Source of the DNA: Eledone cirrhosa
Lineage: Eukaryota
DNA length: 64,000 nucleotides
NCBI GenBank assembly: GCA_964016885.1
Contig: OZ024753.1
Span: forward strand, 37,758,001 to 37,822,000
Reading direction: 5' to 3'
Under the pieces are notes generated by a model that was not told the DNA's origin, ran no database searches, and saw only the letters and a list, made by a program, of their open reading frames with translations. Made by a program: the position numbers and the translations under genes. Positions 21,485 to 51,500 of the stretch are shown one piece after another (within the stretch, counting starts at the first letter, position 1; each line of letters opens with the position of its first letter).

Positions 21485-21998
21485 CTTGACTCTAACGTGG
21501 TAGATATGACGTCACAACCGGTATTTAGGGAGAAAATTCGTCTTATTCCTAAAAAAATTCATTTAATTTAATTATCCTCGTGATTTTTTATAATTTACAT
21601 TAAAACTTTCTAGTTTAGATCCTTTTAAAGAAGTTTAATATTTTTTTAATACAACGTCAACCTGACAGATAATGGATTCGTCCATTAGGGTAGACTGCTA
21701 AAGAAAATGGGTTATAAATTATTCGTATTTATTATTAAAGAAATAAATAGAAGAACATTTTTTAATTAATATATTATTTTTTATATATCGAGCAATACAT
21801 GTAGTTTTTAGAGTATTAGAAAGCTTATAAATAAATGTAATAACCTTTCACACCCCATTTTTATATCTGTAATCGTAACTGCGCATCTGTATTTTCCCCT
21901 TTTGCTAACTGAGCTTCGCTCATTAAAGACGTTTTCTGGCTCACCGCTGATTCTAGGAAACCCTTGATTAAGTCGGCCAGCGTGTAATAATTAAAAAA
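21485..21998. promoter_or_regulatory. Bidirectional promoter and 5' UTRs of TM9SF4 and RPS20
   Basis: 514 bp between divergent ATGs. Perfect CRE palindrome TGACGTCA at 21507-21514. YY1-like GCCATCTT overlaps the TM9SF4 ATG. Pyrimidine tract TTTTCCCCTTTT at 21892-21903 fits the TCT/5'-TOP initiator typical of ribosomal protein genes. Confidence 0.7.
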
Positions 21999-24900
21999 AT
22001 GGTACGTAAAAGTGAAATTTATAATAATATTCTCGTTTTTGTTTACAGTTGACGTATTTTATTAAGAATTTATATGTTAAATCTTCAATTAATTTTTCGA
22101 CATGTGGGCGCCATTTTTATATGTACTCCATGCGGTTTAATGAACTCTTACTTTGACGAGTTTTCTTATATTGGGCTATTTAAGACTGTTTCAAATCAGG
22201 ATCTTCTACTTTCTTTAGATATCTTATATTATCTATTTATTTTCTAATTAATAACTCCTGATCTGCTTTAGCAAGTGTCCGAATGTCGATTTCACAATTA
22301 TTTAATTTTAACTTCTGAATATTTAATATGGGACCTACAGCTGTAAAAAGCAGTTTTTCAGACTGAGGATCATCGATTAGATAGGAAAAATCATGATGAG
22401 ACTGCATAACTAGTTCTGAATACAATATTACGATCGTCGAAATTTAATTATTAATTAAGCAATCTTTAGTAAGTTTGAGTTAGATCTAAACAAGGAAATC
22501 GACATATATAAACACACTACATCATGGAATTAGAATATATGTATGTGTTCGACTATCTCCACGTATGCTGAGTTTGTTATTTATATTCCGTCTACCACTT
22601 CCGAAAAATGCTCTTTTAATAAACCAACTAATTACTCGTTATTAATTGTCTATGTTAGAATAATTATTTTCGGTGATGCAGCTCCGATCCAGTGCGCCAA
22701 ATCACACTCAACATGTGATTAAGTGTGGAACTTATTGTAACAAGTATATGTTGTTTTTTGAAAAGTCTACTGATGGTATTTTTTATTATGAAATAATATC
22801 ATTTACTTATAAAGAATAACCTAAAACTATATAGGCATTATTTCAAATGCTGTTTTGTGGGAATTCTACTTTAGATTTAATACATTCGGATAAATCGTTA
22901 GTTTTGTGTGGCTATCTAGCTACATTATCGACATGAAAATATTTAAGCCTTTCCTTGCCATATTTCTAATGAAAGATAATGGTCGAAGGTCGGTGTTCGT
23001 GCCTACCCTTAGCTATTGTTATGAATCTTGATTAATAACCGAATGAATACAAGTGGTTAAAATGAAGTTCCCTGAAGAGTTTTTAGATTAACATTATTCG
23101 ATAAGGTACATAGTTCGGAGATCAGTAAGTCCCTCCAGGTAGAACTGCAACTTTTTCGCATTAAGAGATCACTGCTCCGATACTAGACATGTGGTTAGAA
23201 TGTTTAACTAAAAAAAAAATAGAATTTTACGAGGAAAGCCACTCAACAGGAGGCCCAGGGGTAGACTACGAGAAAGATGTATGGATAATAACCATAAGCT
23301 CAGTTGTTGATCCAGTCGGATTATTTGGAGACTGGTGCTTCTGATAGGACCCTCTGGGAGGCGTATCAGGTGTCCACCTCCACAACCTTTTCAGAGATAA
23401 GTGGGGAAATACGATGAATTTGGAGGGATTTAGTAATATAACTTTCTCGTTATTAGGCTGGCATTGAAAACAAGGGGTCTTAAATAAAATTACGATAGGT
23501 ATGTATTAATTGGAGAAGGCTTGAATATCATTGTTACAGGTGGTAATTCAAGTGTTTGTAGTATCTGTTGGACAGATCATTGTGAAAATTTGCAATGTGG
23601 TGCAGTCAGTGCTGTTTTATACTTGTCACGAATGTTTTGCTAATGTGGTTTCCTGCTGTGCAAGATGTTGAGTTAATTGGTGACACTAGCACCCTTTCTG
23701 TTCATCATTCTTGGATCCCATATCCTGGACTGGCAAAAAAAACCTTTCTGGAGAGTTTTGGCATAGGAAGCATATAACTAACTTAAAATCCTGAAATCTA
23801 ATTTCCTATCTTTAAAAATTCAGACATTAATTGAGCCATTGTCTTGCTGTATTTAATTTGTTGAATTTTTTAAATATTTTCAATGCAGGCTCATTGTGCT
23901 AAGGATACTGGTAAGGCTCCAGTGGAAGATGTTCCAGTTCACAGAATTCGCATCACCTTGACAAGTAGAAATGTAAAGAGCTTGGAAAAGGGTGAGTATT
24001 TGTATATATCCAGTTGGCCATGGTTTATTGGTCGTCTGAGTCATTTAAAATTTGACGTCTGCCTTCCATACTTAGCAGATTATCACAGTCCAAGATGAGA
24101 GTTGTCCATTGAAAAGGTTCCTGTTTAAATTAAAATCCAACATAATTTTATATATGGCAGTAAATTTGAGTAAATCTCTCTAAACTGTATTTTATCAGAA
24201 ATATGGTCGTGGAAGGGTTAAATTAGAGTCTAGCAGTGGTTTGTTTATTGGTTTTGGGGTGGCCTCTTACTAATATTTCTAGATAGTGGTTTCATCAGTA
24301 GTTGGCATTGTTTTTTGTCTTTGACTCATTTTGTGTCACTACAAGACATCCATTACGGTCTGTAAAGTGGTTGGTGTTAGCAAGTGCACCTTAAATTCTA
24401 ATCCAACCTATCAACTACCCTTAAAATTAAAAATTCTTTTAGTCTTTGGGAGCTAAGTTTATTAATACTGAAACTGTAAAAAGGATCTATTATAGAATTT
24501 ATGTACACAAAATTTGCTTGAGTAAATCTGTTGCTTGGTTGTTAATGTTTTTTGTTTGTTTTGTTTTTTTCAATACAGTATGTGCTGATCTGATCAGAGG
24601 GGCCAAAGAGAAGCAGTTGAAGGTTAAAGGTCCTGTACGTATGCCTACCAAGATTCTCCGTATCACCACTAGAAAGACCCCTTGTGGAGAGGGTTCCAAA
24701 ACTTGGGATAGATACCAGATGAGAATTCACAAGAGAATCATTGATTTGCACAGCCCATCAGAGATTGTAAAACAAATTGTATCCTTTTTGTATTTGCCAT
24801 TCATAAACACTGTATGGTGGAGTGAGAGGGCTTAAATAACTCAGACCTCATTTGTTTTGTGTCTTCTGGTTAGTGGATGAAATTGATTTTCATGTAGGAA

Positions 24901-26917
24901 AGCTGTGGATGGGTAGCAAATACTTACTCTTAACATCCTGGAATAATTAGGTATAAAATATTTTAAAGTGGGTTTCATTCAAATGTTTGTGAATTATTAG
25001 AGTAAAGACTTCAGTTTTTAATGCTGTTTTAAGATCTTGCTGAAGGGATTTCATGCAATGTAAGACCTTTCGTTGTAGTAACTGCACTAACTAAGCCGGC
25101 CGGATACTAATAATTAGTAGCTGGTGGTATACGGTGCAAATATAAACTTGGTGTCACTAAACAGTAACTGTTTTTACAGTTTACATTTATTGATAGCAAC
25201 ACATTTTGTTAACATTGGTTGATCCTTGTATGGGGGTTCATTGGTGTTAGATTTACTCATCATATTGACCCCAGATGCAATCTGGTGTTTATTTTATCAA
25301 GTGGATAAGTTAACGTTTTTATGTCCGTTTTTCCATGCATTATATTAAAAGTGGATACGTAAAAGATACATAATTTGACGAACCTTTTGTTAAATTACAT
25401 TGCAAATACGGTATTTATATAATAATTTGAATACAGTATATTTCATTATAAATATGTTAGTGAAAGGGTTAAAAAAAAAATACTCTAGCTATGGATAGCA
25501 GTCTGATAATTTAACTTTGTGTAGTAAACAACACTGCTTCTTTTCCCATGTTCCAGTATTTGTTCTTTTCTCAGAATAATCATAAAAGTATAAATTTCGC
25601 AGATTTCTATTTATTCTAAAAGTTCGGGTGTTATTACCTTTTATACTGAACATGTCAGGGTCCCAAATGCAGAAAATAACTGCTACTGTTTTAAACACTT
25701 TCATAGTTCATGGGGTTGTTTGTATGTAAATATATAGGTTGTTTTGTGTTGACGATTTACAAAGATGTTTTATTTTCTGGTGGAAATATAGTATAAGATG
25801 TGTTGGGTTTCCTTGTTACTTGCCATTTGTATTTTACATACATCTACCCCAGGTATTTAATTCTGGTTACTGCACTAACTAAGCCGGCCGGATACTAATA
25901 ATTAGTAGCTGGTGGTATACGGTGCAAATATAAACTTGGTGTCACTAAACAGTTGCTGTTTTTACAGTTTACATTTATTGATAGCAACACATTTTGTTAA
26001 CATTGGTTGATCCTTGTATGGGGGTTCATTGGTGTTAGATTTACTCATCATATTTTTTAAACACTTTCATAGTTCATGGGGTTGTTTGTATGTAAATATA
26101 TAAGTTGTTTTGTGTTGACGATTTACAAAGATGTTTTATTTTCTGGTGGAAATATAGTATAAGATGTGTTGGGTTTCCTTGTTACTTGCCATTTGTATTT
26201 TACATACATCTACCCCAGGTATTTAATTCTGGTTACTGCACTAACTAAGCCGGCCGGATACTAATAATTAGTAGCTGGTGGTATACGGTGCAAATATAAA
26301 CTTGCTGTTACTAAACATTTGCTGTTTTTACAGTTTACATTTAGTTATCGGCAATACATTGGTACCAGATGAAGATTATTTCTTCTATAGCCATATTTCC
26401 AATGAGGTTACTTACTGTCCATATATTGAAGTTATCTTTTAATAGCCAAGTTTGAAGGATTTTAAAGGTTATTCATTGTAAGAAAGTTGGTTGTCTTATC
26501 ATCTCGATTGCTTTTTAAACTATATGAAAAGTAAGAGCAATGACTTTCATAAGAAATATGGTAATGAAAGATGTAGATAATGATATGCAGGCTGCTGCGG
26601 TGATGGCCATAGCCATTGATTTATTATTACATTTAGTGATAAACTATATTCATTAGGTCCTTTTTACAGTTGGATGCTTTTCCTGGGGCCTGTTAAAACG
26701 TAGATATGTACCTATTGGTAGTTTATATGGAAAAGTTTGTCATGGGGCCCTGCTTTTGGCATAGAAAATGGCTTTGTTTATTGAACCCTTAGTGGTAAAT
26801 ATTTTCTAATAACTGTAATATTTAATTGTTAGCTTTATATTCCTTGACAAAATCTTTCAGACATCTATTAGCATTGAGCCTGGTGTTGAGGTTGAAGTGA
26901 CAATTGCAGATGCATAA
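21999..26917 (+). CDS. RPS20: 40S ribosomal protein S20 (uS10), complete, 120 aa, 4 coding exons
   Basis: Exons 21999-22001 (ATG|gtacgt), 23889-23991 ([28 protein letters not shown]), 24579-24778 ([39 protein letters not shown]), 26861-26917 ([18 protein letters not shown]). The protein is near-identical to metazoan uS10. Confidence 0.97.
23110..23380 (+). mobile_element. Old RTE-clade RT C-terminal fragment in RPS20 intron 1
   Basis: Decayed RSxLRY..HVVRM..GGPGVD motif; similar to 43380-43640. Confidence 0.5.
25083..25188 (+). ncRNA. Candidate H/ACA snoRNA, copy 1 (SNORA70-like 5' pocket)
   Basis: Hairpin TGCACT...GGTGCA, H box ATATAA at 25140-25145, short second hairpin, ACA at 25183-25185 followed by TTT. 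The pocket is complementary to 18S GCC-UG-CGGCUUA. Confidence 0.7.
25871..25976 (+). ncRNA. Candidate H/ACA snoRNA, copy 2
   Basis: 5' hairpin and H box identical to copy 1; two substitutions in the loop of hairpin 2. Confidence 0.65.
26237..26342 (+). ncRNA. Candidate H/ACA snoRNA, copy 3
   Basis: 5' hairpin identical, hairpin 2 more diverged. Similarity to copy 1 falls off just after ACATTT. Confidence 0.65.
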
Positions 26918-26936: not shown

Positions 26937-29664
26937 TGATAAATTTTATTCCTGTTGTTGTGTTTATTTGTTTACTGTTTGTTTGATCCATTACAAGAAC
27001 CATATATTAACTTACTTTCTTAATGAACCCACAATCTTATGGTTGTGGTTTCATTAGACTGTGCCTTTGTGTCATAAAAGAATAAATAGGAAAATTAAAT
27101 ATTTCAGATACACCGTTTACACTTGCATCATTGTGCTGTTAAATAGAGTTTAACCATTTAGCATTTATGTTGTTCTATATTTACTATTGTATTTTCACGG
27201 TAAAGACTTTACCTCACATATCAAATCTGAGATTTTGAGAGCAATACCATAATATCAGTTTGAACAGAAAGAGGTGAGCAAATTCTGGAAGTACTGATTT
27301 GGGTTTGTAATAACATGACTAACTCATGCCAACATATTTTATCTGGTGATGATGATAGCTATTAAAGATTTACTGGCTCTTCTACCAAATAACCAATTCT
27401 ATAATGACTTACCAGGCTGTCAGTGAGTTTGTGGTTCCTGTGCTGTGCTACATTAATAACTAAAACTAAAACTTTCGGCTCAAAGTTCAAGCCCCACCAA
27501 AGTCAGTCCAGTACTGGGGTCAATTCTTTTTACTTCATCTCTCCTCTGACAGAAATTGTCTTCAGACATGGAAAGGGATGAGTTATGGATCCATGGATAC
27601 AACTGAAATGGCTCATACCAGTGTTAACTCTGAAACTAAAATTTGTTTTCACAACTTGGACTGACTTCAGAATGAATTCTAAAATAAATAAAACAAATTA
27701 CATTAGATCTTCAACTTGTCAATGTGAAGTTTGTGGGGGGGGGGGGGGGGGGGGCTGTATTCACGCAGCATTTAAAACTTGAGTACAGCAGATTTCTTCT
27801 CGAGGAAGGATCGACTCCAATACTGGACTGGTGCTTTTTTTTTATAGATCTCAGCAAGATTTGAACGCAGGGAGCCATAAAGACTCAGCTATTTATAATG
27901 AAAAGACTTCATATATAACATCTGAGGATTAAATGAAAACGATTCTGTGACATTCCCAGCCTTGTCACTTCAGACATTGCCAGATGTTATACTGAGACTT
28001 GATCAACTAATGTCTGATCACCAAGCTGCAAAAATTGAGGAGTGTATCTTATATGAGTGGCTGTAAACATTACTTTTGCTATCTTGTCTGCAGTTGAGAT
28101 ACACCAGGGTGTAATGTCTGTTCATCACCCCTTTTTTTTATTTGCAATAAAGTTGTTTTTCCTTGAAATTCTGAAATGGTAGGCACTTGAGTGTTGGGAA
28201 GTGAACTACTCGTGGCAATAAGATTGTTATAATGTGGAGATTGGAATGCCCAGAGGCAACCTATACATTCAGACATTAGAACTAGTCAATACATAAAGTG
28301 ATGAAGAATTGTACCTGTTCCTGTATAATCCTCCAATTCAGCAATCCTGTTAGATTACCATTCAATCAATGCAGCGAAACCAGCTTTCACTTGCATTCTA
28401 CATTTAGCTTGTTTGGCAACTGAGATCCTGATATGGCTGCTTTAACTTGGCAAATACCATCCTGTTTCTATTGTTACCAAAATTCAGTTGCATTTACCAG
28501 CAGAAGACTTAACAATGGGTCAACTGTAGCATTAATTGATGGAAACATGGCAGTGAATTGGACAAAATTGTGGTATTGAGTTAAGACTGTTCTGGTGTTA
28601 ATAAGATAGAGTACCACTAATGCATTGGATTTGGTTTAATTGACTTTCTCCTGCTATTCAAATTACTGACCTTATAGAAACAATTGCGGTGAAAATTAAA
28701 GAAATATATAACTTTAAATAGAAATACAATTAACTGATAAAAAACGCACTAATGATTTACATATGTAAAAACTTTGTTGGAGAAGTATAAAGATTGACAG
28801 GGTTAAAAGGATAGAGGATACATTTATTTAGTATTTTTACTTTCGGTTATTCCCCACTTTTTCATTACCATTAAATTAACTCAAGATGTTGTTTGGCAGT
28901 GTCGGACGCCATGCTTTCCAGCATAGTTACGTCCCTTTACGATCTGAGTTCAAATCCCGCCGAGGTTGACTTTGCCTTTCATCCTTACGGGGTCGATAAA
29001 ATAAAGTACCAGTAATGCACTGGATAATTGCTGGCCTTGTGCCAAAAGTAGAAAATTAAATTAACTCAAGATTATTATATGGTGAGAATAACATTTAAAA
29101 GAAAATAGTTAGACAGATGTTTGGATTCTGTTGGTTTTGTGTGAATCATATTTCCCATCCCTTCGTTTATTGCGTTGTGTCCTTGAGCAAGATACTTTAT
29201 TTCACTTCACTCGACTGGAAAAAAAAATGAGTTGTATCTAGTTTAAAGGGTCGCCTTTGTCACGTGTATAGAATGCTCAGTCACCTGCACATTAATTTCA
29301 CAAGCAGGCTGTTTTATGTTGATAAAAACTCGTCGTCGGAACCGACGGAGGTCCTATGCACATGTACACTCACCCAAACAAATAAGGGAGGTAACTCCCA
29401 TTTCGGATGCATGATGGGAGAACCTGTGAAGTTTTAAAATGGAGACGAAATGTTTACTTTCGGTTGGCAGGTAACTACAAAGTATTCCATATACTTAATT
29501 ATATTAGTTTTCTTCCAATGGAAGTGTTCCAGAATTATTTTAATTCAGTAATATTAACTTAAGCTTACTTTTGTTACTTTCTACAGATTATTTGACTGCA
29601 ATATAGATTATCATAATGACCCATAAACGATTAAAAATTCGGCAGTTTAGTACACTTAATAGCT

Positions 29665-34200: not shown

Positions 34201-37200
34201 AATGTGGTATGTAACTCTGTGTTTCTACTTTTTTATGTTTTATACCTCACACCTCTGCAGGTTTAGCTGATCTCCTATAAGGTTTCTTCAGTGTTTTAAT
34301 GATAGGGGGGTCCATGTTCTATCATGTTGTTGTTACAGCTCACGCCTATGCAGGTTTAGTTGACCTCCTACAAGGTTGTATCTCATAGGAGGTTTCTCAA
34401 GTGTTTTAATGATAGGGGACGCCAGTCCTATCATGTTACAACTCACACCTATAGAGTGTACCAAGTACATTTATTGTGACACCAACACAACTACTTTACA
34501 AAGTGTAGAGGGTGCATTTTATCATGGCACCAGCACTACCACATTACAGAGTAGTGGGTGCATTTTATCATGACTCCAGCTCTAGAGAGGTTGTCAGGTA
34601 CTTGACAGTGCCAGGGTAGGAGGTCCTCTCTACTCTATGTTGTATCAACAACTAAATCTTTAATTTCCTTGAGTCACTACATCAAGTATGTTAGATGTTA
34701 ACACTCATTTTAATATTAATAATTTGATATTTTATAGGTTGTTGGCTGCTGTTGTAATTGTTCATTTCTGCTGACTGACAATCAAGGATTGACCATCATT
34801 ACACTCTACCTTAATTTCCTCACTGCTGCTTTGTCTCCTACGTCAAGGTAAGACACTTTACTCTTAACCCTTTCAATACTGACCCACCTGAGACTGTCTC
34901 TCATCTTCAGGAACACAATCACACATTTTTTAAACCTTTCATTACATCATAATTTTGTTAGCATTTACATTACTCTGTATTTACTATTATATTTTCATGG
35001 TAAAGCTTCTCCTCACATAATATCGAATCTATGAGATTTTGATATTATTTATTTTGAGAACAATACCTTAACATCAATATGAGTAGACAGTTACAGCCGG
35101 TTTGAACAGAAAGAGGTGAGAGAATTCTGGCTGGATATGGCCGGTTTAAATGCTAAAGGGTTAAAATGTTAGTTATTTTATTAAATCTCTCAAAATTGTT
35201 GATTATTTTCAAAATTAAATAGGCAGCTTATTTCATTAGAAATATGGTCAGGAAATGGTTAAATTTAACTTGTGGCATTTTTTTTTTCCAGCTTCTACCC
35301 GTTGACATTTGACTGGATGTCTGTTAGCTACAGCCGAGCTGACAGTGTACTGAGCAAAATGAATGACAAGCCATTGGCTGACTTCTCCAGGGATGGTCAA
35401 ATATTAGCTGTTGCTATTAACAACACTGTTGCTAAGCAAAATAAAATGATGTTTCTGTCCCCCTTCACAAATACAACTGTTGTATCAGATATGAAAGGAG
35501 GTGGTGCTAATGAATCATCATCAACTCATTTCAGGTAAGTCTAACATTAGCAACAAAAACATTTTTTTTTAAATTCTAATGATTTAAGTCAAAGAAAGAA
35601 CAGCAGTACCTCTGATGCCAAACAAAGGGTCAGGGCATGATAACTTCTTTGATGTTGGTGCCACGATAAAATACCCTCTGTAGAGTGCAATGGTGGTGGT
35701 GGTGGTGCTGGCAATGGTGGTGGTAGTGGTATTTGTGGCAGCAGTAATGGGGGTGATGCTGACAGTGATCGGTTGAGGTAGTGGTGTTGGCAATGATGTT
35801 TGTTATTATTATTATTATCCTTCTTTGCTTACTTATTCCTGAGAGGGCCGTTGGGTGCCGAGCCCTCAAACACTCCTTCCAGTGGGTCCTCTCAGAAGCA
35901 ACTGTCTCCAACAATAAATATTATTATCTTGTGTTTTTATTATATATTTTTCCAGTTATTATTGGACAGCTTCTCTACAATGGACCCACAACAACCTGTT
36001 TGTCGTCTGTATTCTCAACTCTGGCTCCATTTGTGTTCTTTCTCGTCTTGGGGAACCCATACTTTTGAGGACCAATGGATTGTCACAAGAAATGGGGCCA
36101 GCATTTTTCCTACCAATTCATCCTGTCATTATTGTACGGTAAGGAATTAATATTTGTTGTTGTTGTTCTGAATATTACATTACTCAGGATTGAACCATTA
36201 TACACTTTGTCGATTTTTTTTCCATCTCTTAGAGCAGAGGTTCTCAAAGTGGGCTCTACCGTCCCTCTGGGGAGGAAGGGGGTGTTGAGAAGGTCCAGGG
36301 GGCCGCTGGGGACTAAGTGGGAGTGGTGGCAGTAGAGATGATATAATAGTATATTAAATATCAAATCATATTATATATAAATATAGTAAAATAAAAAAAA
36401 TATGTAATATTTATCTATACATAGTATATATTATATTATTTATATATAAATTAACAATTTTATTTATTATATATTATTTGCAATTTGCATGTAGGTTGGT
36501 CTCTCTGGAAATAGCGGTGGGGGCATGGGGGGGGGGGGGGGGGGGGGGGGTGAGAACCTCTGTCTTAGTGTAATTTATCCAATTTTCTCAATTATTATCT
36601 ATAGTGATTGACTATTATTAGTTATTTTCTGCATTTGGGACTCTCACATCTTCAAATTTCAGACAATTCCAGTGCTTTCTTAATTCATATGGTTTATTTG
36701 GGTAAGAATGTTTGAAACTTGTCTTTTATTCTTTTGTAGAAATGAAAATACATCTGAGGCTGATGCCGTGGCTTCTAGTCAACCAAATGAGAGCCCCATC
36801 TCCCAGAAGTTCTCAATAAGCACTCATCCACATTCACCAGTTATTATTTGTAGCGATGGGTTTTTTGTGACTGTACTGGAGCTGCCTTATAATTTGAACA
36901 GCATGTCCCTCGTCCAAGACCTGGTGTCTTGGTCCACTCAGCAGCTTTCTGTATTAAGTAAAGAGTACAAACTTGATATCACTCCCTTTTCAGAACAGAA
37001 ATTCTCTGCTGATGGAATTTTTGTCAAGAAAAACGTTAGTTGCCTTACTTTATTGCAACCTCCCAGGTCTTATCACTTTGAAAATGCAACAACATTCTCA
37101 GAAGAGAGTGACCAAAGCATTGTTGTTGAAGATGATCATATTGGTAAGAATCTAGATGCGGGAATGATTACATTCGGTGTTCCTTCAGCCGATAGTTCTA

Positions 37201-40200
37201 AATTACTGCCAAAAACTCCAAAAACCCATTCAGAGATTTTGAAAAATGTTTACCTCGGTTTGCTCTTAGCTTGGAAGCTTGAAGTAACATCAGGTTGTAT
37301 TTGGGACCCAACAAAAGCAAAAGTTACCAAAATTACTCTGTTGAACATCTCAAAAGTATTCCAGCTTTTTCTTGAGGTACCGTCATTAAGCAATTTTTTA
37401 AAGAATGAAATGTCAAATAAATCGAGTCTTTTCCATCTGATTCGTATGTTCAGGGAATTTTTACATCTCCTTCACTTTGATTTCCTCTACCAGAGACATC
37501 TGAATGTGATCATTTATTTTGTACATAGGACAGTTAAACTTATACTTAACAATGACAATCTCTCTAAATCTGATCCTGCCATCAAAACACTTCTTGGCTG
37601 TGAAGCTTTAATCAACTTTACTAATCAAATTCTGAGTAAGACTTACACCTGGTCTTCGAAATATCCGCCATCAAAGGCCAGGGGAGGGCAAGAGCCTTTT
37701 ATGGAAATTATTTCAGAGTCGGAAGATAATAGTTGGTATGAACCATCAAGAAATAGAGTAGAGACTTCTAATTCAAAAAAGAAAACTCCTAAAAAGAAAC
37801 CTGGTATTGATGCTGAGCAAAGAATACAAAAGAACTCCTTACAAGAGTAAGTTCCCTTATATTTACTTCTGTTTCTTTAGGGCTGTTGGGTCATTATCAT
37901 CATCGTTATCATAAACTTGAAGGGCAGTGGATTGGCAGTATCTTCATTATTTTTAAAAAGCCATAGGCAGTGGATTTTATTAGAAATCCTATAATTATTA
38001 TATGATGTGTTGTTTCCTTTGAGCAAGACACTTTATTTCACATTGCTCCAGTTTACTCAGCTGTAGAAATGAGATGATAGGGACTGGGGTCCCTATCATT
38101 CCACTGCAAAGTGGTCGTGGAGGTGCCATGGCAAAAAAGCACCCAGCACTCACTGTAAATGAGGTTGGTGTTAGGAAGGGCATCCAGCTGTAGAAATCAA
38201 GCCAGAATCAGTTCCCGTCCCACCCTTGCAAGCAAGGAAAAAGCAGACGTAAAATGAAATGATGATGATGATAATGAAAGGGTTAAAGAAACAAATTCCA
38301 ATAAAGTATTATATGTGTCTAATTTGGGAATGTTTGCAGACTGTTACCAACATGGAAGTTATTAATGAAGCATGCTGAGATGGTCGCAGCTGAAGATTTC
38401 AAACACAGAAAGAGCTCAACATATCAAGAAAACAACTACTCTGAGATACTCCAAGAATTATTCCAGCGCCTCAATACACGTCTCTTTGCCAATTTATCCA
38501 GCACGCAGGACATCAAAGAAAGGCCTCATAATATCAGCAAAGGTAGGTATATTCTTGTTTTTTTTTTACTGATAAACATGAGATTGTGGCCATGCTGGGG
38601 CACTGTGTTCAAGTTATTTTAGTCAATCATATCTGCCCTCGTAATTTTTTTTAAAAGTCAGATACATATTTTATCAGTCTCTTTTTGTCAAATTGTTAAT
38701 TTGTGGGACATAAACAAACATTGAATGTAAACAGACATGAATAACACACACACATATACATACATACACTTGTTCACAAATGCACACACACACATATATA
38801 TATATATATTCACTTGCACACATAACGTCCACTGACGGCTGAGCTCATGCTGTTTCAACGTTATCCATGGGCCATTGTAACAGCATGAGCTCAGCTGTTG
38901 GGCACTAACTTTTCCCTATATATGCTGCAGCAGCAGTACTATTTAACACCGTTCTTCAGCAGAGTTTCCATCTATCAAAGTAGTGGTTATTTTAATCATT
39001 TAATAGGTTTTAATGGTAAAATTATTTTTCTTTTCTTTTTTCACTTGAATCTTAGGTGAAAGGTATAGTTTGGAATCAAGACATACTTTGGCTGAGGATG
39101 CTTGGAAAGAACAACTGGCTAAATTAAAAGGTAATGTGTATAATTTGTGTTATATATGTATTTCTATGTATGTATATATATATGTGCTAGCGTGGAAGAA
39201 TAGACGTAAAACGGTGATGATGGTATATATATATATATATATATATATACAAGGTCTGTTGAAAAAGTATTTGACTTTCCTGTGAGAAGAAATGATGTGC
39301 AGAGGGGAGTTATATATATATGTATATATATAGTAATAATAAATGTGAAGACTAAAATCCAAAGAGGGCTTGATAAAGATAAATATATATCAAATATATA
39401 AGAACCATAGAGCAAATATTTATTAAAATAACAGATTAAAATTTAAGCAAAGAATCGCTGCTTTCACCCTTAACGGGAAGATCCCATTAAGGGTGAAAGC
39501 AGCGATTCTTTACTAAAACCTTAATCTATTATTTTAATAAATATATATATATATATATATATATATGCTACACTGCATACTATATATAGTATGTTTGACA
39601 GCTATACTATCCTTCATCAACTTCACCATTGTTCTTTCAGATGCAACTTCTTCATCAGACACAACTTCTTCCTGTATTCTTCATGCCCTCCTCTACACTT
39701 ATTTACTGCGGGGTCAGCTTGCCAAAGCCATGGAAATGGTTGAGACTTTAGTTCTAAAAGATGACATCAGGGCCATATCTAAAGAACAAATGGGGAATTC
39801 ACAGGATTTGGACCCGCCATCATTTCTTACCATCATGAACACTTCCATGTCATCTCAGGTAATATTGTACATTTTATAAGTCTAAGTCTCAAGTCTGTCT
39901 CAAACCCGGAGACTGCTCAAGCCAGTGCTTATCCTAGTTTCTGTGATATGTAGGGACTGAGAGTACAAGCCTCCTCCCTAGACAGGACACCAGTCCATTG
40001 CAGGGTTAAGCACCCAGCTATTGCTGCTGGTAACCATTTTAGTATAATGGAGCAATGTGAAATGAAGTTTAAACCCTGACACAGTCAACTTTGCCTTTCG
40101 TCCTTCCATGGTTGATAAAATAAAGTACCAATAAAATACTGGGGTCTATATGGCTTTTCATAGTGATGGTTTTTTGTGTGTTTTGTTTATCATTTCATGT

Positions 40201-45519: not shown

Positions 45520-48500
45520 GTTATCAGTTTCATTATCATCGCCTTCGTCATCATTAACATTGTTATCATCTTGTTATCGTCATCATTGTTGTCAACATCA
45601 TCATCATATGTTCAAGCTGGTATGGGTTAGACTGATTGTTATGGAGCCAGACTAGATGAGGCTGAGGGCTACGCTATGTTCATACATTTCAGTTTAGTAT
45701 GGGTTCTACAGTTGATACCCTTCCTATTGTCAACTACTTTACACAGTGAACTGGGTACATTTTATCTTAGTACCAACACTATCACTTTACTGCGTGCACT
45801 GGGTGCATTTCATTGTCGTGTCAGCACTACCAATTTACTGAGTGTACTGGGTGCATTTTTATCTCTTTAAGCATGTTGAAATTTATTCTCTGAAAAAATT
45901 CTTTTGTTTGTTTTGTATCAAATAAAAAAAATATCTTAATATTTATTTTTTATTTATATAGAAATCATCCAGACTACAAAATGAAAAATGGTATGCTTTA
46001 TGTGAAGTTTGTCTTACCTGGACAATCCATTTTATACCATTCAGCCATTATTTGGAAGATGAAGCCTGGTCTTATAAAGTTCTTTTGTCAGTCTTAGGAG
46101 AAATAGAGCCCTCTGTAAAGACAGCTCAAATTCTGGCAACCTTCTGTTATGATGCAGAACAGCTTGATTCTGAAGTTCAAGAAAAACTTGACATCTTGCT
46201 GAAACGATGGCAAACATTCTCAGTTGTGAAGGACCAAAATATAAAGCAGATATCTCCCTCAAAAGGTGGCATTATGAAGAAAGATTCTTCATCAGAAAAG
46301 TCTTTATCAGTTTATTTTCAAGAATACTGTTGTACTGTACAAAAGACGATTGATAAGAAAAGGAAATTCTTTGGAAGTTACTCTGAGTTTATATTTGATT
46401 CCAAAACTCCTACGGAACACAACATTAATATTGGTTCATTCCCTTTTGAAATATGTGAATCGTATGGAAAATTTCTGGATATGTTTTATGATATTTCATT
46501 TTCAAAGCTGTTAGAAGATGGCAGGTCACAATCGAAGTCTGTTTTCCCATTAATCAATGTATTCAGTAAAGAAGTTGTTGCTATACAAATGGAATCTATG
46601 CCATTTCGAACAATGACAGGTCGACATCCTAAACAGAGCCTTCTCATTCTATCAAAACCCTGCAAAGAAGTGACCAGTTTTAGAGATTCCAGCAGTATAT
46701 TGGATCCAAGTTTTAGGTCAGTTAATCAACAACACAGTCCAAGGAAAGTAATAGGTCTTTTTAACCGAAGTCATTCAGCAGACCCTTCATACCGTTGTCC
46801 CACAACTCCCACTAGTCCAATGTCTGCGAATGAGAGGAGGCAATTGTGGAGCAAGACCAAACCGAGACCAGGCAGATCTAAAGAAATGGCACAACTGAAT
46901 AACAGGTCAAAATCATTGGACAGCATTCCAGACAAACAAAACATATTGTGGTCATTTGATATCGATTTTGGGTCCCAGTACTTGAAATTAAATCAGTTGG
47001 TTGATTGGTTGATTATGTGGGCTAAAAAGAACCAAGTTCTCATTTCTCAACTAGAAGTGGAACGAAACGATGGAGATTCTGATCCTAAATCAGCCATGCA
47101 TGCTATCGTCCAGCCACAATTGTTGGTTCTTGCTTTGTGGCTCTTGGAACAGAAGTATTACCCTTTAGTTAACACAACAACTATTAGTAAACATTCAGTT
47201 CAGTTTACTTCAAGTCGAAATGAAACCTCCCAGAAATCACGTTCATTTCAGAGACCCAGAAGTAACTTGGAAAAGAAAAAACGAAAGAAGCTTTATTCAC
47301 CTGCTTCTTCGTCGTCTTCTTCTGTTGTGTTGAACAACGAAGAAACTTCGCTTTCTCCATCTCTTTCATTTGATAAGGAAGAGTTTAAAAGATGGTTGAG
47401 AAGCTCAGAGAATGGAATTGAAGTAAGTAATGATACTCAGGAAACTCAGTCTTTGTCTTCAAACAAATCAACCAGCAGAGCTAAGAAGAAAAAGATTAAG
47501 AAAAATCAAAAGAAGGCAAGTCTACGAGGCTCTACACAGTTGATCAAATCTCTGAAGTTTAAAGACATTGAAGAAGTCGAAGAACAAGAAGAGCGCCGAG
47601 GGGTACATAAAGCATATGAATATGTTCTCAATACGTGAGTAAATTAGTTACTTCTAGGGTTGATAAAGTAAAATATACATGAAAAAAATACAAATTTTAG
47701 GGCAAAAAATATGGGTTTACTTTTACATGGGGTACATATAAAAAATCTAAATTTTAGGACAAAAAATATGGGTTGACTTTTACATGAGTATATACAGTAC
47801 TTTGATGTTCCATTTTCTAGTGTTACATATAAAATGATGTTGATATATATATACATATAAAATGATGTTGATATATATACATATAAAATGATGTTATATA
47901 TACATATAAAATAATGTTGATATATATACATATAAAATGATGATATATATATATACATATAAAATAATGTTGATATATATACATATAAAATGATGTTGAT
48001 ATATATACATATAAAATGATGTTGATATACACATACTTGTATTATTTTTGTTATTTTTTTAGAATCAATGAAGGCAGTTATTCCACAGAACCAAGTAATA
48101 TGTCAGTTTCTGAGATCCAGCAGTCTCAAGAGTACGTACAATTTTTGTAGAATTTCTATAATAGACATTGAATGATGATGATGATGAATATAAGTAAAGG
48201 TTTATTATATATCTAATATAATAGGGCGGTGGAGTGTCAGTCAACATGCTTTGAAACATATAGTTATATTCAGTTATGTTCTGGGTTCAAATCTCACCGA
48301 GGTTAACTTTGCCTTTCATCGTTACGGGGTCGATAAAATAAAGTATGAGTAACGCACTGGGGTTAATTTAGTCAACTTTCCCTTTCCTTAAAATTGCTGG
48401 CCTTGTACCTAAATTAGAAACCATTATATATACTGTATTTCCTAAAATAAGTCTAAAAAATCTACCATGCATTCTGGAGGCCGAAGATTGTTTATCATTT

Positions 48501-51500
48501 TTTTTCAAATTTTTGGTTGTCAAAATTAGGGTGTACCTTCGAGGATGAAGCGTCTTTGGCACCTGGGAAATGTGGTATATATATAATATAAGGAAAAGTT
48601 TATTTATTATATATAAATAATATAAATAAACGTTTATTTATTTTCCAGAAGAAGCTATAGTGATCCATTGAGTGTTTCAGTTACATCATCCTTCTCTGCC
48701 GACAGTTTGGAAGATGAAGAATCCTCTGAGAAGCAGAAACCTCTCCAGGGTTCACAATTGACCATGTTTGATACAAAAACTAGTGTTTTATCAGAAACGC
48801 GTTCATCTTTATATAACCAGACCCAGTCTAAAAGGCGGCAGGAACCCAGCAAAGAAAGCCTAATTTCTGAGGTGAAACAAAATGTAAAACAACATCTAAA
48901 GAAGGATGTGGTGGACATCATCCAGGTAGAAATCCAAAAGTTGATTGATGTAAGCAAGTTGTTCTCTTTTATTTTCATTCTCTCATCTCCATCTTTTCTT
49001 TATTCTGCACTTATCATCATCATCATCACCACCACCACCACCAATACTACTACCATCACTAACACCACCACCAGTACTATTACCATCATTACCACCACCA
49101 CCAATACTACTACCATCACCACCTCCACCAATACTACTACCATATTTTTAATGTCTTGTATCATATTTTTAATATCTTTTATCATATCTTTAATGTATTG
49201 TATCATATTTTTAATATCTTATATTTTCTTTTGCTTCCTAGGTTCAGAACGACCAATTCAAGTTTATTATAGATGCATTATCACCTCGTAAAAATATGGA
49301 GAATAAAAGATATAAGAAGAGGCATCATGTTAACAGGACTTCATCAGATTTTAGTTTTAGTACAGATTCAGACTCAGAGAATCAGAGACCCACTGTAGTA
49401 GTATCCTCTAAAAAGACACAAGCTAATATTACTGAAGGGTCATATTCTACGTCACCTGTCGCTCAAAGAAACGTAAAACACACTAAAAGTTCATTTGGAA
49501 ATATTAGAGAAGTCTTAAAGGAATTGGAAAACCTTCAAGAAGTGTCTCATGCTGCCAAAGACAGGTCTTCGACTTTTATTTCAAGACCTTCCAATAACGA
49601 GAAACTAAATTATCAAAGAATGGATCCCCCAGAAAATTACCAGCCCCAGCCTCAACCCCAGTACCAACAACAACAACAACAACATATGGTTAATGATGGC
49701 AGTAAAGTAATTGACGTAACAAATCGCAGGGTCACCGATGAAGGTTTACATCAGAAGTACCGTTTATTTAATCTCAATAGTGTCTCAGAACATAATCGTC
49801 GACCCATATTGTCATTGCCAGAAATACAATCAGCACCTGAGCCTTCAGTTAGTAGTGCCCACGTAGTAGTGTCTCAAACACCAGCCCCCACAGAGAAGAG
49901 CCCTGTTAGAATGCCTTTGCTTTGTCTTACAAAGAAACAACCCAGTATCTTTAAAATTCCCGAATCTTATGTATGTGTTCCTAGAGTTATGCAAGAAGTT
50001 GTAGAAACTAACAAAATTCCATCACAGAAATATGCCCCACCTTGTCACAACTCTTTAAGTGACCACAACACCCACAACACAGCAAATGCTAATAAAAATA
50101 CAGTAAAATTTCCTAAACAAACTTTTAAAATGTTGATTGATTCTTCTGTTTCGGAACAATCAGAGGAACCTCCACAGATGCCACTTTTAAAAATTCCAAA
50201 AGACAAACCAGAGTTGCTTGGCCCTCAGATGTCTTATCAGCTTATACCATCTGAATTAATTGCTGATTTTAAGCAAAAACTTCTGGACAAAAACGATAAG
50301 AAAAAGAAAAACTTTATAAAATTTCAACAGAGTGAACTGCAGAAACTGAAGGAAGAGAATGAAAAAACAACTTCAGATCCACCCCAATTTCATTATCTTG
50401 AGGCGAAACAAGGGACTTCTAAAGAAGATGAACAACCCACACAGTCAAAAGTTGATACAAGTTCTCATGTCAGCAATGTTAAAAGGTAAGTCCTGGTTTG
50501 TTGTTTTAATCAAATAAGAGAGTGTGTAATGACAATGGGTGGTAGGCTTAATCCTTTAGCATTTAAACTGGCCGTATACAGCAAGAATTCTCTAACCTCT
50601 TTCTGTTCCAAATGTTACGGTGTTGTTCTCAAAATGAATAATATCAACATCTCATAGAGTCGATATTATGTGAAAGTACAATAGTATATATAGAGTAATG
50701 TAAATGCTAAAGAGTTAACCCAGTGATCTGGAAACCTCTGGAAACTATGTAATATGTATTGAGGTTATGTTGACTATGTAATATATATTGAGGTTATATG
50801 TAATATGTATTGAGATTATATTGAATATGTATTGAGGTTATGTTAAATATGTATATCTTTTATTTTTTTAACAGAAGCAACCGGAGAAAGAAAAAAGAGG
50901 AAGAAGAAATGAAAATTATGGAGAAAACACTGACAAAAGCTGAGGTAAAATAAGATTTTGTGTGAAGATTACTGGGGCACAGCCATTTTAAAAAAGTGTG
51001 TCGTATGGCGTCAGTGATCCTGGGATTCATAATAGCTAGATAAAGTAACCACATGACTAAGCTCACAGATTGTGGCATATAGTTACGTCCCTTTACATTC
51101 TAAGTTCAAATCCTACTGAGGTTAACTTTGTCTTTCATCCTTACAGGGTCGATAAAATAAAGTACCAGTAATGCACTGGTGTCAATTTAATTGACTTCCC
51201 CCTTCTTCCCCCAAAATTGCTGGCCTTGTGCCTAAATCAGAAACCATTATAATGATTACTATTATTTTTATTATTATTGTAGGTTAAAGTTCCAGTTGAA
51301 TCTTCACCATTGCTAAACAAAGCAGAAGAGAACCAACCAGATACCAATAATGGCCAACCTGACCAGATTCATAAAGACTTTATCATCAACCCAGGTAAGG
51401 ACGGACATTCTGTAAAAATGGCAGCAGAATCTTCATCTTTACATGGTCTTTTCAAAGTTAAAACAAAATAGCCCTGGACATAGCAGTGCCTTTTTGTTTG

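Follow-up and report, generated by a model that had tools for sequence, protein, structure and literature searches.

The 64-kb window analyzed here, a stretch of 64,000 nucleotides (nt) of contig OZ024753.1 of the Eledone cirrhosa assembly GCA_964016885.1 (positions 37,758,001 to 37,822,000), carries RPS20, the gene for ribosomal protein uS10, in four coding exons that give an intact protein of 120 amino acids; the product of exon 3 matches Pfam PF00338 with 72.7 bits. Its last intron, intron 3, is very probably a U12-type intron removed at exactly 24779-26860, likely excised by the minor spliceosome and likely releasing SNORA70-like guides for a pseudouridine of the 18S ribosomal RNA (rRNA). 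Splicing was read from a single run, X4, which was seen as contigs and whose kind is not on record; we take it for RNA on the grounds of a spliced contig and of a loose end upstream of exon 2 whose letters agree with the final bases of RPS20 exon 1. The gene and the signals of its last intron are laid out as follows.

21999..22001, plus strand: RPS20 start codon, the end of exon 1 (5' untranslated region upstream)
23889..23991, plus strand: RPS20 exon 2, 103 nt, with U2-type introns on both sides (gene model)
24579..24778, plus strand: RPS20 exon 3, 200 nt, last codon 102 (KQI) (gene model; PF00338)
24779..26860, plus strand: RPS20 intron 3, GT-AG, U12-type (minor), 2082 nt, phase 0, after KQI (signals; exact X4 joint)
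24779..24789, plus strand: U12-type 5' splice site GTATCCTTTTT, exon side ATT (motif; U11/U6atac pairing)
26840..26848, plus strand: U12-type branch site TTCCTTGAC, predicted branch A 26847 (motif; complementary by eye to the branch-recognition stretch of the species' own U12)
26861..26917, plus strand: coding part of RPS20 exon 4, last 18 codons and stop (gene model; joined to exon 3 in X4)

One X4 contig joins 24778 to 26861 exactly (GT..AG) at a depth of 1443.6, with 88 letters on the shorter side; this is the sole joint listed for X4 at 98% likeness, and it is absent from the DNA-like runs X1-X3, so that the junction proposed in the initial annotation is found just where it had been placed. 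A protein search of the genome returned one RPS20 locus; no retrocopy in the assembly therefore explains the joint, and uS10 mRNA would depend on the minor spliceosome, as had been suggested.

The consensus RTATCCTTT lies at the donor of the X4 joint itself (GTATCCTTT at 24779), and the acceptor shows a TTCCTTRAC branch site without a long pyrimidine tract: 12 nt separate TTCCTTGAC from the end of the intron (AG ending at 26860), which places the predicted branch A 13 nt before that end. Within 64 kb the donor motif arises by chance with a mean of 2.08 per shuffle (at least one in 84 of 100 shuffles), the branch site followed by YAG with a mean of 0.54 (at least one in 42 of 100). The window holds one donor motif and one branch motif, and they sit at both ends of the 24778>26861 junction. 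Matches over the Rfam cut-off are present in the genome for all the small nuclear RNAs (snRNAs) of the minor spliceosome searched: U12 (1, at 128 bits), U11 (2), U4atac (1), and U6atac (15). The 15 U6atac matches are spread over several contigs, against one or two for the others, and many are likely pseudogenes. The intron 3 donor pairs with the species' own U11 and U6atac at -6.9 and -8.2 kcal/mol; at the donors of introns 1 and 2 the values stay between -0.8 and -3.1, and pairing energy singles out intron 3 among the three RPS20 introns. Donor, branch site, exact X4 joint, and the four minor snRNAs together bear out the U12-type call made from the sequence; introns 1 and 2, which had been described as U2-type, are so indeed, with donors GTACGT and GTGAGT and T-rich acceptors.

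The same annotation had named the intron a host of small nucleolar RNAs (snoRNAs), giving no coordinates. An Rfam search of the window at gathering level returned no match; at E-value level it gave three matches to SNORA70 (RF00156), at 22.3-24.9 bits and E-values of 0.09-0.36, all within intron 3.

25082..25206, plus strand: SNORA70-like H/ACA candidate, copy 1 (H box 25140-25145, ACA 25201-25203; Rfam 22.3 bits; fold z -2.9)
25870..25994, plus strand: SNORA70-like H/ACA candidate, copy 2 (H box 25928-25933, ACA 25989-25991; Rfam 24.9 bits; fold z -2.0)
26236..26361, plus strand: SNORA70-like H/ACA candidate, copy 3 (H box 26294-26299, ACA 26356-26358; Rfam 24.1 bits; fold z -2.8)

All three copies show the order hairpin, ANANNA hinge, hairpin, ACA tail, with canonical box spacing. 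The 5' hairpin is identical in copies 1 and 3, while the 3' hairpin has diverged and still folds, and the likeness of the two copies stops at the RNA ends; in the basal 3' stem of copy 3, three substitutions keep or improve pairing, a comparison of two independent sequences only. Copy 2 has the upstream flank of copy 3 and the downstream flank of copy 1, in recent tandem duplications with flanks 96-98% identical; this combination indicates that copy 2 is likely the youngest, having arisen by unequal crossover, and no further near-identical copy was found elsewhere in the genome. An assembly artefact is an unlikely source of the three copies: a shared contig of 70 nt has about three times the depth of unique sequence (25.9 vs. 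9.3-9.6 in X1, 12 vs. 4.0-4.2 in X2), and one X4 contig spans copies 2-3. Repeats at 22940, 24181, 25432, and 26536 were also considered as snoRNAs and dropped, being by their depth fragments of high-copy elements. With their scores below the 40-bit cut-off, we file the intron 3 copies as SNORA70-like and not as members of the family; the host claim holds up through the H/ACA anatomy of these three candidates, not through a family-level hit.

Targets were scored against the species' own 18S, 5.8S, and 28S rRNA. The best site for the 5' pocket is 18S U1923 (own numbering) at -22.4 kcal/mol, with the next at -18.0; it ranks first of 72 candidates among 1779 U, with 7+3 base pairs round the U and 14 nt from the H box. 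The 3' hairpin has no consensus guide, and no match at 18S-1692/1694 was among the best shown. PMC4914119 counts SNORA70 among the vertebrate-conserved families and, for the human RNA, predicts 18S-1232 as the target of the 5' stem and 18S-1694 as that of the 3' stem. We infer that U1923 and human 18S-1232 are equivalent, since the guide arms of the two RNAs, once aligned, pair with one and the same 18S motif. The copies are close to SNORA70 in this nearly identical left arm of the 5' pocket, in the 18S motif, and in architecture; they differ in scoring below the cut-off, in a 3' pocket without the human guide sequence or a clear target, and in their host, which is RPS20 here and RPL10 in human. 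An unconstrained pocket scan had put 28S 568 and 18S 2030/2031 first by using stem bases; with an energy model that respects the structure, 18S 2030 dropped to rank 6. Pairing is also possible between the left arm of the 5' pocket and bases beside an 18S CCG motif (own 2030-2040, rank 6 of 72), probably by chance. We take this CCG motif to be a site of acetylated cytidine. The rRNAs of the species are very long: 18S about 2.87 kb (G000:C12:25167906-25170781) and 28S about 5.1 kb (G000:C12, L009:1391-6504).

To follow the intron in other organisms, metagenome contigs were scanned for RTATCCTT directly behind the five final codons of exon 3, a pattern that leaves out the branch site and, demanding a U12 donor, is blind to intron losses. 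Of 73 pattern loci, 38 were unrelated to RPS20 and were dropped; the other 35 are RPS20 with a U12-type donor after KQI. Independent cases are far fewer than 35, as the 34 loci with a full exon (window not counted) fall into 21 clusters at 97% identity and five at 90%. The intron is complete in 23 loci (196-2182 nt), and TTCCTTRAC is matched at seven or more of nine positions within the last 30 nt in 20 of these, compared with 5.9% of shuffled tails; with the branch site outside the scan pattern, these matches are independent support. No sequence block common to the introns of different groups was found among the RPS20 loci compared.

By likeness, six of the loci are coral-like, five insect-like, and 22 form one bilaterian-like group, with two (L027 and L057) not placed. 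Exon 3 is identical at 66 of 66 residues between L074 and Stylophora and between L048 and Timema; among 22 named proteins the window exon is nearest to molluscs (64/66 to Physella). In human RPS20, exon 3 covers r.104-177 and exon 4 is the last (bioRxiv 10.1101/2019.12.16.877084), a layout in which the intron after KQI is missing. Given a U12-type intron in coral-like, insect-like, and other animal loci and none in human, the sequences suggest that the intron likely predates the cnidarian-bilaterian split, that the common ancestor had it as a U12-type intron, and that some lines have since lost or converted it, with a likely loss on the line to humans.

Predicted read-through proteins mark an intron at this position also for the fungus Entrophospora (P0141) and among unnamed entries; they show the position and not the type of an intron, and the query was built to enrich them. 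As evidence for type they were discarded (69 of 114 new matches continue V/I-S-F/L), as a U2 donor GTAAGT also reads VS. Ten of them (P0034, P0148, P0179, P0188, P0194, P0200, P0204, P0207, P0231, and P0232) run V and then a residue other than S after the junction, which is impossible from GTATCC and suggests U2-type donors. Related unnamed proteins (P0148, P0179, P0188, P0194, P0200, P0204, P0207, P0231, P0232, P0128, and P0132) continue VG, VN, VI, VR, or VS, and these mixed continuations may be a snapshot of U12-to-U2 conversion within one lineage. The public uS10 models of Stylophora, Acropora cervicornis, Timema, and Entrophospora (P0009, P0143, P0140, P0141) leave the sequence right after KQI, where a gene finder likely mishandled the intron.

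The cargo of the intron differs between lineages. The RPS20 intron of the coral-like locus L021 holds, some 90 nt from its acceptor, a SNORD33 (L021:3684-3765, minus strand, 49.7 bits at a cut-off of 44); with SNORA70-like copies here, these sequences speak for a cargo that is not conserved but a lineage-specific passenger. Such passengers are usual for ribosomal-protein introns. A C/D scan with strict pairing missed this SNORD33, which served as positive control; with G-U pairs allowed, it was the only candidate in about 34 kb of introns of the other loci, and none appeared in the three introns of the window. The other orthologous introns gave no snoRNA in tests of limited sensitivity: Rfam over 16 of the 35 loci (where a 24-bit match would be borderline), one pocket motif, and the C/D scan, so that H/ACA RNAs were sought by Rfam and the motif only. 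Locus L021 also has a second SNORD33-like copy about 3 kb downstream and outside RPS20 (L021:427-511, minus strand, 31.6 bits), and a long near-perfect inverted repeat (L021:3040-3247; MIR2646 match of 94 bits at a cut-off of 245) that is likely a small transposon hairpin.

Depth in X4 is 3.8-5.6 for intron 3 contigs and 2.6-4.2 for introns 1 and 2, whereas the spliced contig has 1443.6. Contigs gauge depth poorly, this is one sample, and the intron contigs may be DNA carry-over, so we read it as a weak sign that retention is not conspicuous in X4 and splicing efficient; nothing points to a bottleneck. Translation of the retained intron gives the 18-residue tail stated in the initial annotation. 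Retention tails differ between species after three residues, on which ground a conserved retention isoform was rejected and a retained message is most likely non-productive. The further suggestion, that uS10 and snoRNA output is tied to minor-spliceosome activity, holds as a dependence of uS10 mRNA; as regulation it is not supported, retention in X4 being inconspicuous and tails and snoRNA cargo differing between lineages.

Complementarity and the established mechanism would have U11 and then U6atac pair with the intron 3 donor, and U12 pair with the branch site, bulging A 26847. After debranching, the excised lariat would be processed down to H/ACA RNAs; for all three copies to mature from a single intron, cuts between them would be needed, and otherwise fewer than three would do so. 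Clusters of several snoRNAs in one intron are known from Drosophila. A released SNORA70-like RNA would pseudouridylate 18S rRNA, and uS10 output would depend on minor splicing as housekeeping, splicing appearing efficient in the one run seen.

That a minor intron in so highly expressed a ribosomal protein gene is unexpected, as first stated, goes too far: human and mouse RPL4 have one, and intron 3 of Xenopus L1 hosts U16. The minor intron of RPL4/L1 and the U16 intron are presumably one and the same; the tables for them follow different genome builds. Introns of human and mouse RPL4 are classed as minor in the available part of PMC11347168, in which RPS20 is not listed; for the U12 intron of Xenopus L1, inefficient splicing is reported (PMC2846911), U16 is placed in L1 intron 3 (PMC2553595), and human SNORD16 is hosted by RPL4 (PMC4914119). 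RPS20 and RPL4/L1 are alike in that each, a ribosomal protein gene, has a U12-type intron and is host to rRNA-modifying snoRNAs; RPS20 differs in encoding uS10 of the 40S subunit, in that the intron is the last and not an early one, in H/ACA instead of C/D cargo, in the three copies, in the absence of the intron from human, and in no sign of inefficient splicing here. Other U12 introns are reported for S13 (Rhizopus, Phycomyces), L31 (Phytophthora), and L4 (Physarum) besides Xenopus L1, with a regulatory idea raised citing Patel et al. 2002 (PMC2846911); they too are minor introns of ribosomal protein genes, and the S13 intron also lies towards the 3' end. Neither that source nor its two supplements name S20, and snoRNA is absent from its text. 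Human RPS20 is alike in hosting an intronic snoRNA, SNORD54 (PMC4914119); it differs in which snoRNA this is, and has an intron after c.177 and none after KQI (bioRxiv 10.1101/2019.12.16.877084). Minor introns are enriched in molluscs according to PMC10639083, the main text of which does not mention ribosomal proteins or snoRNAs.

Several observations weigh against a minor intron that releases working guides. The RNA support comes from one run of contigs of unrecorded kind, the U12 duplex energy did not separate the three RPS20 acceptors (-7.9, -7.7, and -6.2), and the near-identical loci L012, L014, and L028 have a weak branch match of 6/9. Removal of intron 3 by the major spliceosome, the site being U12-like in look only (a hybrid or relic), would agree with GT-AG ends, which fit both splicing machines, and with the U2-like donors at the same RPS20 position in some other organisms; it is nevertheless hardly credible, since TCC at donor positions +4 to +6 and ATT at the exon end match the U1 site poorly, both U12 elements are complete in intron 3, and all four minor snRNAs are encoded in the genome. 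For the guides, the SNORA70 scores of 22-25 bits lie under the gathering cut-off of 40 (E 0.09-0.36), a genome-wide RF00156 search gave no match (an insensitive search, blind to the three candidates already known), the pocket pairs only three bases on its right arm, no convincing target appeared among the 3'-pocket sites scanned, and X4 has no extra cover over the snoRNAs (for copy 1 not used as evidence). A U12-type intron whose three repeats are decayed copies, or an unrelated local repeat resembling SNORA70, would account for these low scores and the poor pocket, for the position of the copies in recent tandem duplications with 96-98% identical flanks, and for the failure to find the pocket motif in an H/ACA context at the 35 other loci. 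We think it unlikely: H and ACA boxes are both in place with canonical spacing, copies 1 and 3 are alike only within the RNA, pairing in the basal 3' stem of copy 3 is preserved or strengthened by its substitutions, the top-ranked 18S target coincides with the site predicted for human SNORA70, and there is no near-identical copy elsewhere.

A regulatory bottleneck, in which a slow minor intron is kept as a rheostat tying uS10 output and snoRNA release to the minor spliceosome or to uS10 feedback, as in Xenopus L1, would add to the preferred explanation of a minor intron with SNORA70-like cargo and not replace it. In keeping with it are the U12 signals kept in coral-like, insect-like, and mollusc-like animals, the single RPS20 copy, an RPS20 intron that carries snoRNAs in two lineages far from each other, the precedent set by inefficient splicing in L1/RPL4 (PMC2846911), and the finding that the minor intron of human RPL4 responds to morpholinos against U4atac and U6atac (PMC11347168 Table S6). 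The idea is improbable all the same: intronic depth in X4, judged from the contigs of one sample, is alike in all three RPS20 introns and far below the 1443.6 of the spliced contig, no block is conserved from the intron of one group to that of another and cargo differs, the remaining complete introns that were scanned gave no snoRNA, human has no such intron, ten read-through proteins imply non-U12 donors at this position, and much of the evolution of minor introns is argued to be neutral (PMC10639083). A wider proposal, which we hold to be quite doubtful, would make the RPS20 intron a second, independent RPL4-like control point dating at least to the cnidarian-bilaterian ancestor (its position perhaps to animals plus fungi): it would gate the sole uS10 gene, be repeatedly loaded with 18S guides (SNORA70-like here, SNORD33 in the coral-like locus), and couple small-subunit biogenesis to the minor spliceosome in invertebrates, having been lost in humans.

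The RPS20 minor intron is real and old, has good support, and is apparently undiscussed in the open literature searched, but the arrangement has already been described for RPL4. No paper on an RPS20 minor intron was found in the open literature; subscription papers and intron databases were outside the search, and automatic catalogues may well contain it, Octopus sinensis being among the species of the Larue-Roy database. Human-centred lists miss this old minor intron of animals because humans are without it; the gene that it lies in is essential, present in one copy, and expressed at a very high level. A strongly spliced minor intron in a top-expressed gene would argue that minor introns need not be rate-limiting; new biology would be established only if regulated retention were shown. 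The copies are also candidates for an invertebrate guide to the 18S site that corresponds to human Psi1232. Some public protein models, those of Stylophora, Acropora cervicornis, and Timema, are wrong at this junction.

A pyrimidine run at 21892-21903, about 100 nt upstream of the RPS20 start codon, is a candidate 5' terminal oligopyrimidine (TOP) start. Seven long open reading frames elsewhere in the window have no Pfam match; long open frames without such a match, possibly repeat-derived, lie at 36684-37850, 45962-47638, and 48626-50489 (221-558 codons). Fragments of very high-copy repeats occur inside and behind RPS20 at 22822-23008, 23383-23569, 24131-24504, 25440-25626, 26375-26748, and 27123-27300, and their summed depth in the DNA-like runs ranges from thousands to hundreds of thousands.

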